Shown here in pieces: positions 38,073 through 55,364 of a stretch of 64,000 nt of DNA; within the stretch, counting starts at the first letter, position 1, and each line of letters begins with the position of its first letter. Source of the stretch: Candidatus Hodarchaeota archaeon (GTDB lineage: Archaea; Asgardarchaeota; Lokiarchaeia; Sigyniarchaeales; SOKP01); NCBI GenBank assembly GCA_048886685.1, contig JBHLKM010000001.1, positions 358,623-422,622 of the forward strand, given 5' to 3'. The notes under the pieces are model-generated. The model was not told where the DNA came from. It searched no databases and saw only the letters and a program-made list of their open reading frames with translations. Both the position numbers and the translations under genes were made by a program.

Positions 38073-38107
38073 ATGCTTATTGATGATAATAATGCATAAA
38101 TAAGCAT
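38073..38107. promoter_or_regulatory. 9-bp inverted repeat between divergent regulators (candidate operator)
   Basis: ATGCTTATT (38073-38081) / AATAAGCAT (38099-38107), next to a TATA-like element at 38111-38120. Confidence 0.4.
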
Positions 38108-38220
38108 CATTTATATATTATTTGGGATTAATATGATCATAAGAACAAATTCTTAACATTTAAATTAAAAAGTCGAATATTTGTCGTTTTTGATTTTGTT
38201 AATAAAAGGAGGAATAAATT

Positions 38221-38475
38221 ATGGCAAATGAAACTATTATTGAGAAATTTTCTGAATCTAAAGATTTTTTATCTCCAATTCAATATAATTTACTCAAAAC
38301 TTTGGATACGATTGGCCCTTCTACGCGTAAAGATTTAGTAAAACAACTTAAAACACCAAGAACTACAATCTATGATAATTTAGTAAAACTTCAAAAAAGA
38401 AAATTAATAGAAAAATTCTCTCGTAATGATGGGAAGAGAGGACGACCATTAGTTTTTTGGAAATTAAAAACCTAA
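38221..38475 (+). CDS. TrmB/MarR-like winged-helix regulator
   Basis: GPSTRKDL...TPRTTIYDNLVKLQKRKLI...GRP; GGAGG SD. Confidence 0.85.
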   Translation: MANETIIEKFSESKDFLSPIQYNLLKTLDTIGPSTRKDLVKQLKTPRTTIYDNLVKLQKRKLIEKFSRNDGKRGRPLVFWKLKT

Positions 38476-38520
38476 AACAGTTTTCCTTTTTTATTTTTTT
38501 ATATATAATAACATATATAC

Positions 38521-38702
38521 TCCTATATTTCTACTGGAATTTTTATTTAGAATAGTTAAAAATGGAAAATTAACTAAATAATTTAGAATAGAGCCCCAGT
38601 AAAAAATTACTCAATTATATTTAAATAAATTTATTAAATTTTTAATATCTCTAAATATCAACTTTAAAACTCTAAAAAGAATTCTCCAGTGGAAAAAGAG
38701 GA
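38521..38702. other. candidate replication origin (oriC): inverted ORB boxes flanking an AT-rich unwinding element
   Basis: TCCAGTAGAAATATAGGA (minus, 38538-38521) and TCCAGTGGAAAAAGAGGA (plus, 38685-38702), 15/18 identical, both matching the archaeal ORB core TCCAGTGGAAA; weaker CCCAGTAAAAA at 38595. Confidence 0.7.
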
Positions 38703-38749
38703 CTCTAAAAAATAAATTAATAGAATTAAATTATCAGGAAATAAAACTA

Positions 38750-40582
38750 TTATTTTGGAATATAATAAAATTCGTTTATTCTTTTCTGATAAATATCCTT
38801 ATTGCTTCCTGTTTTATTTACTCGTGGTCTTTTCGTTATCGAATCTCTCCTAAATGTAATTCCCATAATTTTTAGGAACAAATTAAATCCATCTCTTAAA
38901 TTCTGAGGTGCCATAGCCTTTCCTTCTAGCCCTGGAATACCATCAAATACTAAAATAGAATCAGCAATAAAATCTTGTGTTATTATATCATGTTCTACAA
39001 CAAATCCTGCTTTCTTTAATTCCTCAATTGATTTTCTTAAAAGTTGAGCAACTTGTAACCTCATTTCCACATCTAAAAATGCCGAAGGTTCATCTAAGAG
39101 ATAGATATCAGCATTAGTTGATAGACATTTTGCAATTGCTACTCTTTGTAATTCTCCACCACTTAATTCTGAAATTTTACGTTCCTTGAGATTTTCAAGA
39201 AGTAAACTATTAATTAATCTCTTCTTAAAAGATTGACTGAGATGAGGGGCCATTTTTATTTGAGAAATGAGATCAGAAACTAGCATATCCTCTTCCATTT
39301 TTATGTATTGAGATTTTACTGAAACTGATAACTTACCGTCATTATTACTATTATTATCATTATGACTTACAGTAGTAGCTTTATGTGCAATTGTATTTAT
39401 AAATGTAGTTTTTCCTATTCCATTAGGTCCTAAAATCCCTATTATCTCCCCAGAATGAATTTCACTCCCATTAGTGTTCAATTTAAAATTGTCTAGAGAA
39501 ACTTCGATATCCTCATAAGAGAAAATAACTTCTCCAGAACCATAAAGAGACTCTTGGGGTGGACGTTCATGAAATAAGATAGGTTCATCTCTAAATCTTA
39601 CATTTTCATCTTTAATATATCCATTCAGATAAATGTTTATTCCAACTCTTACTCCTTGAGGATGAGAAATAATTCCATATACTCCTGGTTCACCATACAA
39701 GATTGAGACGTAATCACTAAGATAATCCAATATTGCCAAATCATGTTCTACAACTATTATAGTTTTATTTTCTTCTGATAATGTTCTGATTAATTTAGCC
39801 ATATTGATTCTTTCACTAACGTCTAAATATGAGCTTGGTTCATCAAACAAATATACGTCCCCATCTTTTAGGTAAGCCGCAGCAATAGCTACTCTTTGAA
39901 GTTCTCCACCTGATAATACTGAAATGTCTCTATCTAAAATCTCCTTTAGGTTTAATTTCTCAACAATTTGATCTAACTTTTTTATTTCGTCCCCCTTACT
40001 TAAAAGATCAACTACTCTTCCCTTTACATATTTTGGGATTATAGTTATATTTTGAGGTTTATACACAATATTTAATTCATTTTCTTTAAGATCTATAAAA
40101 TATTGATGTAATTCGGAGCCTTTAAAGTGATCAATTATTTGTTTCCAATCAGGAGCATTATCTCCAAACTTACCAAGATTCAATTTTATTTCATTTGATA
40201 ATATTTTTAACATAGTACTTTTCCCTATTCCATTTTGACCGATTAAACCAAGAACTTTTCCCTTTTTAGGTATCGCCATCCGAAAGAGAGAAAATTGATC
40301 TGGTCCATAACGATAAGAAATTTGATTTTTTAAGGGGTCTGGCAAATTTACGATGCTTATAGCATTAAATGGGCATTTTTTAATACATATACCCTCTCCT
40401 GAACAGAGACTTTCTGTAATTATTACAAATTTTTCATCAGGGCTTAGTACGATGGTTTTATCTCCTGTTCTCACTCTAGGGCAATATTTTATACATGGTT
40501 TTTCTCCATAGGGGCTACATTTGTTTGGTTTACAAAAATCCTTGTTTAGAACAGCGATTCTCATTATTTGACTCACGTTCAC
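38750..40582 (-). CDS. rli: ABCE1/RLI ribosome recycling ATPase (start probably ATG 40564)
   Basis: N-terminal FeS Cys cluster, two NBDs (GQNGIGKS, GPNGIGKT, LSGGELQR x2), ITFRRD...RPRVNK hinge. Confidence 0.96.
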   Translation of the reverse strand: MNVSQIMRIAVLNKDFCKPNKCSPYGEKPCIKYCPRVRTGDKTIVLSPDEKFVIITESLCSGEGICIKKCPFNAISIVNLPDPLKNQISYRYGPDQFSLFRMAIPKKGKVLGLIGQNGIGKSTMLKILSNEIKLNLGKFGDNAPDWKQIIDHFKGSELHQYFIDLKENELNIVYKPQNITIIPKYVKGRVVDLLSKGDEIKKLDQIVEKLNLKEILDRDISVLSGGELQRVAIAAAYLKDGDVYLFDEPSSYLDVSERINMAKLIRTLSEENKTIIVVEHDLAILDYLSDYVSILYGEPGVYGIISHPQGVRVGINIYLNGYIKDENVRFRDEPILFHERPPQESLYGSGEVIFSYEDIEVSLDNFKLNTNGSEIHSGEIIGILGPNGIGKTTFINTIAHKATTVSHNDNNSNNDGKLSVSVKSQYIKMEEDMLVSDLISQIKMAPHLSQSFKKRLINSLLLENLKERKISELSGGELQRVAIAKCLSTNADIYLLDEPSAFLDVEMRLQVAQLLRKSIEELKKAGFVVEHDIITQDFIADSILVFDGIPGLEGKAMAPQNLRDGFNLFLKIMGITFRRDSITKRPRVNKTGSNKDIYQKRINEFYYIPK

Positions 40583-40699: not shown

Positions 40700-42448
40700 T
40701 TGTTCATTAAAACTATAAAGAATAGCCTAAATAGTGAAGAGAATTTGAGTGAAGGTTATCCAGTTCATTGGTTAGATGAAATAATTAACAAAATTTTAAA
40801 GAGAAATGAATCTTTAATTACTTTAGCAACGGGAAAAACACCTTCTGGCTTCATTCATCTTGGAATATTACGAGAAATCATCATTTGTGATTCTATAAGA
40901 AAAATCCTCGAAGAAAAAGGTTTTGCTGTAAGATTTTTTCTATTCTTTGATAGTTTAGACGCTGCTAAAAGATTCCCGAATTATATTGATCAGAAATTTC
41001 AAAATGAACATTTAGGAAAGCCCTATTCCTACATACCATGTCCATTTCGAGATTGCCAATGTGAAAGTTATGCTCACCATTTTGGAAATGATTTATCATC
41101 GACTTTCCCTGATTTCGGGATAAAAACAGAGATAATTTGGACGCATGAATTATATAAGACCAAAAAAATGCAAGAAATGATTAAAATTGCGTTAGAAAAT
41201 ACAGAAAGAATAAAGGAAATAATGCGAAAAAATATTTTACCAACCTTAGACGATAAAAAGAAAATTAACTTTATAGAAATGCAAAAAAGTTGGATGCCGG
41301 TTATGGTAATATGTGAAAAATGTAATAAAATTCAACATCGGGAAAAAGATGGAACAATTAAACCAAATCGAGTAACTAAATACTTGAGAGAAGACCAAAA
41401 GGTAGTATATTCATGTAATTCCTGCGGTCATACAGAAAAATTATCTATTTATAGTGGTAGGTTAAAATTAAGCTGGAAAGTCGATTGGCCAGCAAAATGG
41501 GCTCTTTATAAAACAACATGTGAACCCGCAGGTAAGGATCATAGTGTCAAAGGTGGAGCTTATGTAATAGGATTAGAATTATGCCAAGAATTATATAATT
41601 ATATTGGACCTGTCACAGTACCCTATGAATGGGTAAGATTAGGTGATCGAGACATGAAAACCTCTAAGGGTATCGTTTTTACCCCTAAAAAATATCTAGA
41701 AATCGCTGATCCAGAAATATTTAAGGCAATAATTTTAAAAATTAATCCTTTAAAGCATATTTCATTTAGAATTGAAGAACTTCCCCAATATTATGATTTT
41801 TATGAAAATATGGAGGAAACTTATTTCTCAGAAATAAAGGAAGGAGAATCAAGTAAAAAAGAATTACAATATATATATCCTTTAACCCAGATTCATAAAA
41901 TACCTGATAAAAAATCCATAAGGATACCATTTAAATTATTGATTTTTCTCTCACAAGTTCAGAACATTTTAAGTCTAGAAAAATTATATGAAAAAGCAAA
42001 AGAAGCATCTAATTTAGAAAATTTTGAAAAAATAATTACCTTAGAACAATTTAAAAACCTTATTAGACAAACGACTGATTGGCTAACTGCTGTGAAAGAG
42101 GTCATTGAAACAGAAAAGAATAATAAGGTTAGAAATGAGATATTAAGAAAAATAAATATTTTTACTATTCCAAAAGATATTAACAGTGATGTCTTAAATT
42201 CATTAACAGATATACAAAAAAAAGGTATTAAATTACTAAAAGACTATCTTTCTAAAGAGGAACATTTAGATTCTGATATGATCCAGAATAAGATTTTTAC
42301 AATAGCTAATAATGATTTAGAAATAGCGCCACGTAAAATGTTTGAAGCAATTTATCAAGTTATTCTAGGAAAAAAATCAGGACCGAGGTTGGGTTCGTTT
42401 TTAACCTTATTAGATAAACAATGGTTATTGGAAAGATTGGATATATAA
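40700..42448 (+). CDS. lysS: class I lysyl-tRNA synthetase
   Basis: HW, TPSGFIHLG..RE, WKVDWPAKW, EPAGKDH, MKTSKG, GPRLGSF. Confidence 0.95.
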   Translation: MFIKTIKNSLNSEENLSEGYPVHWLDEIINKILKRNESLITLATGKTPSGFIHLGILREIIICDSIRKILEEKGFAVRFFLFFDSLDAAKRFPNYIDQKFQNEHLGKPYSYIPCPFRDCQCESYAHHFGNDLSSTFPDFGIKTEIIWTHELYKTKKMQEMIKIALENTERIKEIMRKNILPTLDDKKKINFIEMQKSWMPVMVICEKCNKIQHREKDGTIKPNRVTKYLREDQKVVYSCNSCGHTEKLSIYSGRLKLSWKVDWPAKWALYKTTCEPAGKDHSVKGGAYVIGLELCQELYNYIGPVTVPYEWVRLGDRDMKTSKGIVFTPKKYLEIADPEIFKAIILKINPLKHISFRIEELPQYYDFYENMEETYFSEIKEGESSKKELQYIYPLTQIHKIPDKKSIRIPFKLLIFLSQVQNILSLEKLYEKAKEASNLENFEKIITLEQFKNLIRQTTDWLTAVKEVIETEKNNKVRNEILRKINIFTIPKDINSDVLNSLTDIQKKGIKLLKDYLSKEEHLDSDMIQNKIFTIANNDLEIAPRKMFEAIYQVILGKKSGPRLGSFLTLLDKQWLLERLDI

Positions 42449-53872: not shown

Positions 53873-54172
53873 TCAATGAAAATCTCCTTCCCAGATCTCT
53901 ATGAATTTCTTTAAACTGCGTGCTTTTATATTTTCTATTTTATATCTAAAAATTTTAATCCTTCCAAACCTTTTTTCTTGTATTAAATCAAGATTTTTAA
54001 GGTGATTTAGATGTTTTACAACATTAGAATAATTTAATCTAGTATGATTAATAATCAACGAAATAGTTAATTCTTCATTCTTAGCTAAGGTTTTTAGGAT
54101 TTTAACTCTAGCTTTTGAACCAAATAGATCTTCGATTAAAAACTTTTCTTTAGAAATAATCATGTTATACAT
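53873..54172 (-). CDS. ArsR-like winged-helix protein
   Basis: LFGSKARVKIL, HLNHL, GRIKIF; overlaps cdc6 stop. Confidence 0.8.
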   Translation of the reverse strand: MYNMIISKEKFLIEDLFGSKARVKILKTLAKNEELTISLIINHTRLNYSNVVKHLNHLKNLDLIQEKRFGRIKIFRYKIENIKARSLKKFIEIWEGDFH

Positions 54173-55364
54173 TTAGCCCTTTCGATTTAAGTATCTCAAT
54201 AATGATGTTTTCTAATTTTGATAGGTTTATTTCAGGTATCTGAATTAACGCTTTTCTGCCTTTTATTTTCTCACTTAAGACTTTAATTACGATTATATTT
54301 TCTCTTTTAAACTCTTGAAGATAATTCCATAGTTGAGAATTAGATCTGGAAGGCAATCCTACATTTTCACATATAATTTGATATATTTTTAAAATATCCA
54401 AAAATGAGATTTCTGTATCATAAGATTTCCTCAAACCTTTTACAATAGAAAGCAAGAGAAATAGTTTCTGTGAAGAAATATACTTTAAAATATCTAAAGT
54501 TGAAAATGGTACCATTTCTTGACTTCCAAGCCTAATACACTCAGGATTTATAAATTTTAAATTCTTTCCTTCAGCAATCTTAGCAGATTTCCATAAAACA
54601 TTTAACCCATTGCGAATATCTCCATTAATATACGTTGAATCAGCAATCATTTCAATTAGATCATCAGCTATAACATTCTCTTTTAAGCTAAGCTGTACTC
54701 TATATTTTAAGATGTCAAATATCTGTTTTTTAGTATAATTATTGAATTTAATAATATTCCTTTGTAAGGTACTCACAGTACTGTAGTCTAAGTTATTTAA
54801 ACATGAAAGATCTCTTACAATCCCGATAATTGAGATTCTTTCTTGAACATTTACGGAGTCATCGTTAATTCGAGTTAAGGAATAAATCAGATCTTCTCCC
54901 TTATTTATAAGATAGCTTAATTCATCCAAAACAATCAAAATGTGTGTATCTTGTTGATTCAAGTAATCAATGAGGATCTCTAGTAAATCTTGAGGAGAAT
55001 ATCCTCTTTTTGGAAAGTTCTTATTTATTAGTTGAATAATTCTAATTAGGACCTTATAACTAGTCCGTTCTTTTCGGCAATTAACATGTACGTATTTAAT
55101 GGCTACGCTTCTTTCATTTGACGCTTTTTTAAGAATTTCCCCAAAATATTTTACTGTAACTGTTTTACCAATCCCCGTTTTTCCAGTTATTAGGATTTTT
55201 CTAGAAATTGAATTCGGCTCCGTTATTAGTGCTAAAAATAGTTGGGATAATAAGGATAATTCTTTATCTCGGTGTGGTAATTTATTCGGAACGAAATTCA
55301 TATCAAGTTTGCGTTCATCTTGAAATAATGATGGTTTTTTAAGTAATTCTTCAAAATATTCCAT
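54165..55364 (-). CDS. cdc6: Cdc6/Orc1 replication initiator
   Basis: FVPNKLPHRDKEL, GKTGIGKT, HVNCR, IVLDE, GDIRNGL. Confidence 0.95.
   Translation of the reverse strand: MEYFEELLKKPSLFQDERKLDMNFVPNKLPHRDKELSLLSQLFLALITEPNSISRKILITGKTGIGKTVTVKYFGEILKKASNERSVAIKYVHVNCRKERTSYKVLIRIIQLINKNFPKRGYSPQDLLEILIDYLNQQDTHILIVLDELSYLINKGEDLIYSLTRINDDSVNVQERISIIGIVRDLSCLNNLDYSTVSTLQRNIIKFNNYTKKQIFDILKYRVQLSLKENVIADDLIEMIADSTYINGDIRNGLNVLWKSAKIAEGKNLKFINPECIRLGSQEMVPFSTLDILKYISSQKLFLLLSIVKGLRKSYDTEISFLDILKIYQIICENVGLPSRSNSQLWNYLQEFKRENIIVIKVLSEKIKGRKALIQIPEINLSKLENIIIEILKSKGLNV

Follow-up and report, generated by a model that had tools for sequence, protein, structure and literature searches.

In archaea an origin of replication usually adjoins the gene of its initiator, in a pairing of replicator and initiator (PMC4010727). 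A close described counterpart of the locus reported here is oriC1 of Sulfolobus, the core of which is a 130-bp ORB3-DUE-ORB2 arrangement bound by Orc1-1, with an essential central motif (ucm) bound by UBP (PMC12141716). The archaeal consensus ORB is CTTCCAGTGGAAACGAAAGGGGT (after Pelve et al., PMC4153887, Table 2), and that of Methanomassiliicoccales is GTTCCAGTGGAAATGG-AGGGGTA, with a TTTGCAGTGGAAAT variant included (PMC4153887). The ORB pairs predicted in Methanomassiliicoccales consist of TTCCAGTGGAAAT-NN(N)-AGGGGT boxes, inverted and 39-256 bp apart, among which a TTGCAGTGGAAAT variant also occurs; most of these ORBs, and all of the inverted pairs, adjoin orc1/cdc6.1 (PMC4153887). A different solution is found at oriC3 of Sulfolobus, which has no ORB or mini-ORB and lies beside whiP, a gene for a winged-helix protein that is a Cdt1-like initiator and not an Orc1/Cdc6 (PMC4010727). 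No mapped replication origin of an Asgard archaeon was found in the reviews and genome papers searched, and closed genomes of Lokiarchaeia have been reported to have no bidirectional GC-skew pattern (PMC11291895).

The window analysed here is the whole 64-kb stretch of DNA (G000:C1:358623-422622) that makes up the final part of a 422.6-kb contig in a 4.42-Mb draft genome of 47 contigs (G000, mean GC 30.9%). The nearest relatives of proteins encoded around the locus belong to MAGs labelled Lokiarchaeota or Promethearchaeota, which places the genome among the Asgard archaea. Within the window lies an element that, with a probability of roughly 80%, is a chromosomal replication origin of the classic oriC1 type in this Lokiarchaeia-type Asgard archaeon, the initiator gene of which is located elsewhere.

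The inverted ORB pair and its AT-rich spacer

The locus has every feature that had been described from the letters of the window. Two 18-bp boxes, TCCAGTAGAAATATAGGA on the minus strand (38521-38538) and TCCAGTGGAAAAAGAGGA on the plus strand (38685-38702), are identical at 15 of 18 positions, with AGGA tails that point outward in both; a third box, CCCAGTAAAAA, is present at 38595-38605; and the whole is situated in a gap between convergent genes, one encoding a winged-helix protein (plus strand) and the other ABCE1 (minus strand). Comparison with relatives allowed each 18-bp box to be lengthened to 25 nt, so that the element occupies a gene-free stretch of about 190 bases (38515-38708). Its features and those of its surroundings are as follows.

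38221-38475, plus strand: gene for an 84-aa winged-helix protein, the constant neighbour of the element
38476-38749: gene-free gap flanked by the convergent winged-helix and ABCE1 genes
38515-38539, minus strand: left ORB, 25 nt, TTCCAGTAGAAATATAGGAGTATAT, with the dyad core TCCAGTAGAAA at 38528-38538 and a GGAG tail pointing away from the spacer
38540-38683, no strand: AT-rich spacer, candidate duplex unwinding element
38547-38555 and 38583-38591, plus strand: two direct copies of TTAGAATAG, found by a direct-repeat search
38593-38605, plus strand: central motif GCCCCAGTAAAAA, which includes the third box, near the midpoint of the spacer
38616-38638, no strand: conserved AT block TATATTTAAATAAATTTATTAAA, resembling a TATA box
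38684-38708, plus strand: right ORB, 25 nt, CTCCAGTGGAAAAAGAGGACTCTAA, with its core at 38685-38695 and its tail pointing away from the spacer
38750-40582, minus strand: ABCE1 gene
40700-42448: gene for Class-I LysRS, beyond ABCE1
54165-55364, minus strand: gene for the Cdc6 paralog of the window, 15.5 kb from the element
Contig C15, 37169-38476: orc1-1 ortholog

Each box is laid out as a consensus core, a 3-nt spacer and an AGGAGT or AGGACT tail. By hand count against the consensus GTTCCAGTGGAAATGG-AGGGGTA, the left box agrees at 18 of 23 positions and the right box at 16 of 23, with equal spacing. The G-tail of the window boxes is GGAG or GGAC only, and the full GGGGT tail is found on homologous boxes of relatives with higher GC content (G032, G152, G149, G155, G246, G158 and G196). 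The boxes of G032, TTCCAGTGGAAATCGTGGGGTGT and TTCCACTCGAAATCAAGGGGTGT, are fully canonical and inverted, with their tails outward; those of G031 are palindromic cores without a clear G-tail. The literature searched offered no statement on the orientation of G-tails in experimentally mapped origins. By the features that define archaeal origins of the ORB (oriC1) type, the element matches the consensus (TCCA-N-TGGAAA core, short spacer and G-string) and comprises at least two inverted ORBs around AT-rich DNA in a genome that encodes an initiator of the Orc1-1 type, but the initiator gene is not adjacent to it.

As had been proposed, the DNA between the boxes is very AT-rich: the 146 bp between the 11-nt cores have 15.8% GC, which places them in the lowest 0.6% of 146-bp windows in G000. 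The length of the spacer is about 140-180 bp throughout the family. The pair of TTAGAATAG copies is conserved in the genus alignment, and the paired arrangement occurs once in G000. The CCCAG of the central motif is almost invariant across the genus, the composite of the central motif and the preceding AGAATAG is unique in G000, and CCCCAGT or CCCCATT also appears between the ORB pairs of other families and classes (G031, G246, G158 and G155). The AT block TATATTTAAATAAATTTATTAAA, unique in G000 and strongly conserved in genus and family, may either belong to the unwinding element or act as a promoter; the conserved TATTTAAATA block, if it is a promoter, could count against the interpretation of the element as an origin.

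Like oriC1 of Sulfolobus/Saccharolobus, the element has inverted ORBs around an AT-rich spacer (130 bp there, 146 bp between the cores here) and a short conserved motif near the midpoint, and an Orc1-1 ortholog is encoded in the genome. The resemblance of CCCCAGT to the ucm of Sulfolobus would be one of position only. In Sulfolobus orc1-1 adjoins oriC1, whereas here a different contig carries it (in the closed genome of G031 the distance to the element is about 290 kb), the G-tail is cut to GGAG, and a small winged-helix gene is resident beside the candidate origin. The inverted pairs of Methanomassiliicoccales likewise differ from the window pair in adjoining an initiator gene.

A whole-genome scan for ORBs, which the sequence-only reading had called for, found the pair to be unique in G000. 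The core TCCAGTRGAAA is present in 9 copies in the 4.42-Mb genome, only the two boxes being followed by an NNNAGGA tail, and the inverted-pair pattern TTTCNANTGSA-N135-160-TSCANTNGAAA appeared in none of 100 dinucleotide shuffles of the window. With a 25-nt weight matrix trained on 36 boxes from relatives (G000 being left out), the left box scored 33.2 bits and the right box 28.3, and the next site in G000 scored 16.5. Neither the motif scan nor the weight-matrix scan found any further full ORB in G000, and no ORB was found near the cdc6 gene of the window or near its paralog on contig C2. A canonical-looking ORB on contig C16 was rejected because it lies inside a coding region.

Conservation was assessed in the ABCE1 loci of 19 congeneric species (79-91% identity at the protein level). 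Both boxes are kept in all 19 loci, about 160-175 bp apart, together with the two TTAGAATAG copies, the near-invariant CCCAG centre and a block ATATTTAAATAAT-TTATTAA. The boxes drift within the genus, the left to TTGCAGTGGAAAT and the right to TCCAATCGAAAT, and the changes are non-compensatory. The expectation that the boxes would be conserved downstream of ABCE1 was thus borne out as far as the boxes are concerned, but it is the winged-helix gene, not ABCE1, that is their constant neighbour. In two single-contig genomes of the same genus (G005 and G021), neither an ABCE1 ortholog nor a convincing DNA match to the locus was found, the best DNA match in G005 being rejected as a chance match. 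The strict pair pattern is present in 92 of the 149 genomes of the order (81 of 129 in family f1, 8 of 14 in f2 and 2 of 4 in f4), compared with 1 of 149 for the reversed control.

The region is non-coding, and the TATA-like block (TATATTTAAATAA) and the interior motifs, all of them conserved, would also suit a promoter together with a gene for a small non-coding RNA, or a 3' regulatory element common to the two convergent genes, in which the boxes would be the arms of an RNA or DNA stem. Such an explanation is very unlikely, given that the boxes correspond to the ORB consensus and that the predictions of structure were negative. The element had no match in Rfam at E-values up to 10; RNAalifold returned about 0 kcal/mol, with no consensus structure and no covarying pairs on either strand; and forced pairing of one arm with the other held in 77.3% of cells, compared with 76.0% after shuffling, with the variable positions mostly unpaired. 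A structured non-coding RNA gene was rejected on these grounds, and since there is neither a fold nor covariation of the arms, their complementarity is attributable to the presence of two copies of one protein-binding consensus.

The winged-helix gene as neighbour of the element

The gene encoding the 84-aa winged-helix protein adjoins the element in all 20 of the loci examined in family f1 and G031, and also in G024, G037 and G032; in every f1 genus examined, the element is found 30-150 bp beyond the 3' end of this gene. The neighbourhood consists of housekeeping genes (HIT, NIF3, ABCE1 and LysRS), the synteny of which is kept across the family. Homologs of the winged-helix gene are present in 152 of 300 genomes throughout the phylum. 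In other classes the gene is located beside a canonical inverted ORB pair only (G152, G155, G246 and G158), beside orc1-1 only (G172, G214, G166 and G224), or beside both (G149, G196, G345 and G175). This clustering of ORB pair, winged-helix gene and orc1-1 in other classes suggests that an ancestral cluster has been split in this order: as gene order would have it, the simplest history is that orc1-1, the winged-helix gene and oriC were once together, and that orc1-1 left while the other two stayed.

The locus G149:C1:621587-624775, in a closed Asgard genome of 1.4 Mb, combines a canonical inverted ORB pair, the winged-helix gene and orc1-1 at approximately 622-624 kb. The published chromosome of Odinarchaeum LCB_4 has its position +1 set at an origin picked by skew (PMC9246712); if G149 is Odinarchaeum LCB_4, the distance from that +1 to the ORB cluster is about 44% of the genome.

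The 84-aa protein is annotated only as a MarR, ArsR or HTH regulator, or as hypothetical. Its matches to Pfam families are all below the cut-off (HTH_20, 24.6 bits with a cut-off of 27; TrmB, 24.2 with 25.6; MarR_2, 24.3 with 27), and its AlphaFold2 model, searched with Foldseek, is that of a generic winged helix, with a TM score of 0.79 to the winged helix of TFE-alpha. No likeness to Cdc6_C or Cdt1 was detected by Pfam (E-values up to 10), PDB sequence search, AlphaFold2 or Foldseek. The situation resembles that of oriC3 in Sulfolobus in that the gene next to the presumptive origin encodes a winged-helix protein other than Orc1/Cdc6, but it differs in that the boxes here are canonical ORBs and in that the 84-aa protein, unlike the Cdt1-like WhiP, is a single generic winged helix.

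Two elements upstream of the winged-helix gene are nearly invariant in the 19 species: an inverted repeat, ATGCTTAT-N22-ATAAGCAT, around TGATGA (38073-38110), just upstream of a TTTATATA box, and a GTCG-N7-GTCG repeat (38172-38186) about 50 nt before the start codon. These are probably operators for some regulator, possibly the 84-aa protein itself; the promoter and the interior of the candidate origin have no motif in common. Inverted repeats are typical targets of small winged-helix proteins, and the linkage of gene and element extends across the order and into other classes, so the boxes might be conceived as operators for the 84-aa protein instead of Orc1, at a transcription-factor locus that has no role in replication. 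The chances of this are slim: the boxes, which lie beyond the coding part at its 3' end, are separated by 157 bp, a distance too great for a single dimer, and the gene has other conserved motifs in its own promoter, as described above. The box is, moreover, the pan-archaeal ORB, found in lineages and papers in which the 84-aa protein is not mentioned.

If the element is an origin of the oriC1 type, then by analogy with ucm and UBP of Sulfolobus, the central CCCCAGT and the 84-aa protein probably belong to the origin module. That the 84-aa protein might be a dedicated Asgard-wide origin factor, binding CCCCAGT or otherwise modulating Orc1-1 and MCM at the origin as a functional counterpart of UBP or WhiP, is a tentative and rather doubtful extension of the same analogy, according to which the winged-helix gene would have stayed with the origin on the departure of orc1-1 because its product acts in cis-proximity.

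Orc1/Cdc6 paralogs and strand asymmetry

The G000 genome encodes three Orc1/Cdc6 paralogs, located in the window, on contig C15 and on contig C2. The cdc6 gene of the window is about 15.5 kb away from the element, with no ORB-like site upstream, just as the sequence-only reading had it; the accompanying suggestion that its product is the cognate initiator has not fared well. The closest match of this protein is the Cdc6 of Pyrobaculum (1FNN, 1e-51), and structures of Orc1-1 match it at only 8e-35 and 4e-29, whereas for the product of the C15 gene the matches are 2V1U (3e-88) and 2QBY_A (8e-86), two chains of Orc1-1-type initiators from structures with bound ORB DNA. Because the C15 paralog is by far the better match to Orc1-1, the divergent paralog of the window is probably not the cognate initiator, and the C15 gene is the clear orc1-1 ortholog. 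The C2 paralog is divergent.

Within the genus, a cdc6 paralog that is not orc1-1 lies 10-15 kb from the candidate origin (the window, G022:C29 and G002:C20). In G031 such a gene is 99 kb from the element and still near the ABCE1 and LysRS genes, and for this reason the closeness of cdc6 and the element in the window looks like a by-product of synteny.

The promoter of orc1-1 is highly conserved in the family and contains short ORB cores, TGCAATNGAAAT and ATTTCGAGTGGAAA, 10-40 nt apart, just 3' of the TATA box. Among 33 loci examined, 26 have at least one strict ORB core within 150 nt of orc1-1, where 0.02 would be expected per 150 bp. In G000, two inverted short cores conserved throughout the family are situated directly behind the TATA box of orc1-1 (C15:37085-37130). 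Their presence in orc1-1 promoters is a link, for this lineage, between the motif and Orc1-1. As these cores have neither a G-tail nor an AT-rich spacer, they resemble an operator, and they are probably autoregulatory, though the region upstream of orc1-1 could with its ORB cores be a second or the true origin.

It is therefore necessary to consider that the boxes of the window are real Orc1-binding sites that belong to a dormant or secondary origin, or to a regulatory or chromatin site, replication being initiated elsewhere, for example ahead of orc1-1, or through recombination. In favour of this, 26 of 33 orc1-1 promoters keep ORB cores, archaea with dormant origins are known and some can grow without any origin, and the skew of G000 is uninformative. 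This alternative is nevertheless considered unlikely: the cores at orc1-1 have the look of an operator (10-40 nt apart beside a TATA box, with no G-tail and no AT spacer), no full ORB other than the two boxes is found in G000, and the peak of AT skew in the closed genome of G031 is at the element and not at orc1-1.

G031, of family f2, has a closed genome of 4,361,485 bp, in which no replication genes adjoin the element. The relevant positions are as follows.

609,637-609,799: element
610,150-610,425: winged-helix gene
696 kb: ABCE1 gene
708-710 kb: cdc6 gene of the window type
902-903 kb: orc1-1, about 290 kb (292 kb) from the element

Skew in G031 was sampled as 20 kb per 50 kb (40%), with the contiguous region 310-1220 kb in addition. 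Over the whole genome, cumulative AT skew is highest at 590-650 kb, a range that includes the element (609.7 kb), and lowest half a genome away at about 2.8-2.9 Mb; orc1-1 (902 kb) and the other cdc6 gene (709 kb) are off the peak. In a two-replichore regression with ORF orientation controlled, the best origin by AT skew is at 600 kb (t = -7.0, leading strand T-rich), and the best by GC skew is at 520 kb, 80-90 kb away (t = +4.0, leading strand G-rich). When the terminus is left free, an origin at about 1.06 Mb fits equally well, and this position is tolerated because of an outlier at 1.03-1.05 Mb. The outlier itself (G031:C1:1,030,000-1,050,000) has AT skews of +719 and +487 per 10 kb despite mostly minus-strand ORFs, for which an atypical gene or an insertion may be responsible. 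In G000, where the contig ends 25 kb beyond the element, AT skew tracks gene orientation (r = 0.69) and the residual is noise. The examination of skew that had been suggested as a check thus gave a divided answer, with an AT-skew maximum at the element in G031 on the one hand, and on the other a G000 skew that follows gene orientation and a GC-skew optimum in G031 that is offset.

The inflection also bears on the idea that the element belongs, as an origin, to an integrated plasmid or virus and not to the chromosome. The idea has some appeal in view of the proposed capture of archaeal origins from extrachromosomal elements, but here the element is single-copy and set among housekeeping genes in family-wide synteny, no integrase or repeat borders were seen, and in G031 the element coincides with an inflection of skew over the whole chromosome, so that an origin of this kind is scarcely credible.

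A candidate origin apart from its initiator gene

The proposal that the element is an oriC separated from its initiator gene draws support from boxes that fit the ORB consensus, form a pair found nowhere else in the genome and are conserved, from the AT skew of G031 and from the linkage of ORB pairs to orc1-1 in other classes; its function is deduced from these. According to the proposed mechanism, Orc1-1 would be made from the C15 gene and act in trans, one monomer binding to each of the inverted ORBs with its winged helix on the TCCAGTRGAAA dyad core and its AAA+ domain on the GGAG tail. The bound pair would steer the loading of the MCM helicase to the 146-bp, 84% AT spacer, where the duplex would open and the origin would fire, giving bidirectional replication.

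Adjacency of replicator and initiator is usual and is not mechanistically required. In bacteria such as Escherichia coli, oriC is located apart from dnaA, and the initiator acts in trans and autoregulates its synthesis through boxes in its own promoter. A trans-acting initiator would be the point of likeness, by way of analogy only, the initiator family and the type of box being different.

The departures of this locus from known origins are its separation from the initiator gene throughout the order and the presence of a winged-helix gene common to several Asgard classes. The element is a sequence-defined, conserved and unique candidate origin in an Asgard archaeon, and if it functions as such, the rule that an origin is found beside its initiator gene fails across a whole order. 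In the winged-helix gene, which accompanies the candidate origin across Asgard classes, the lineage closest to eukaryotes offers a concrete candidate for a previously undescribed factor associated with origins.
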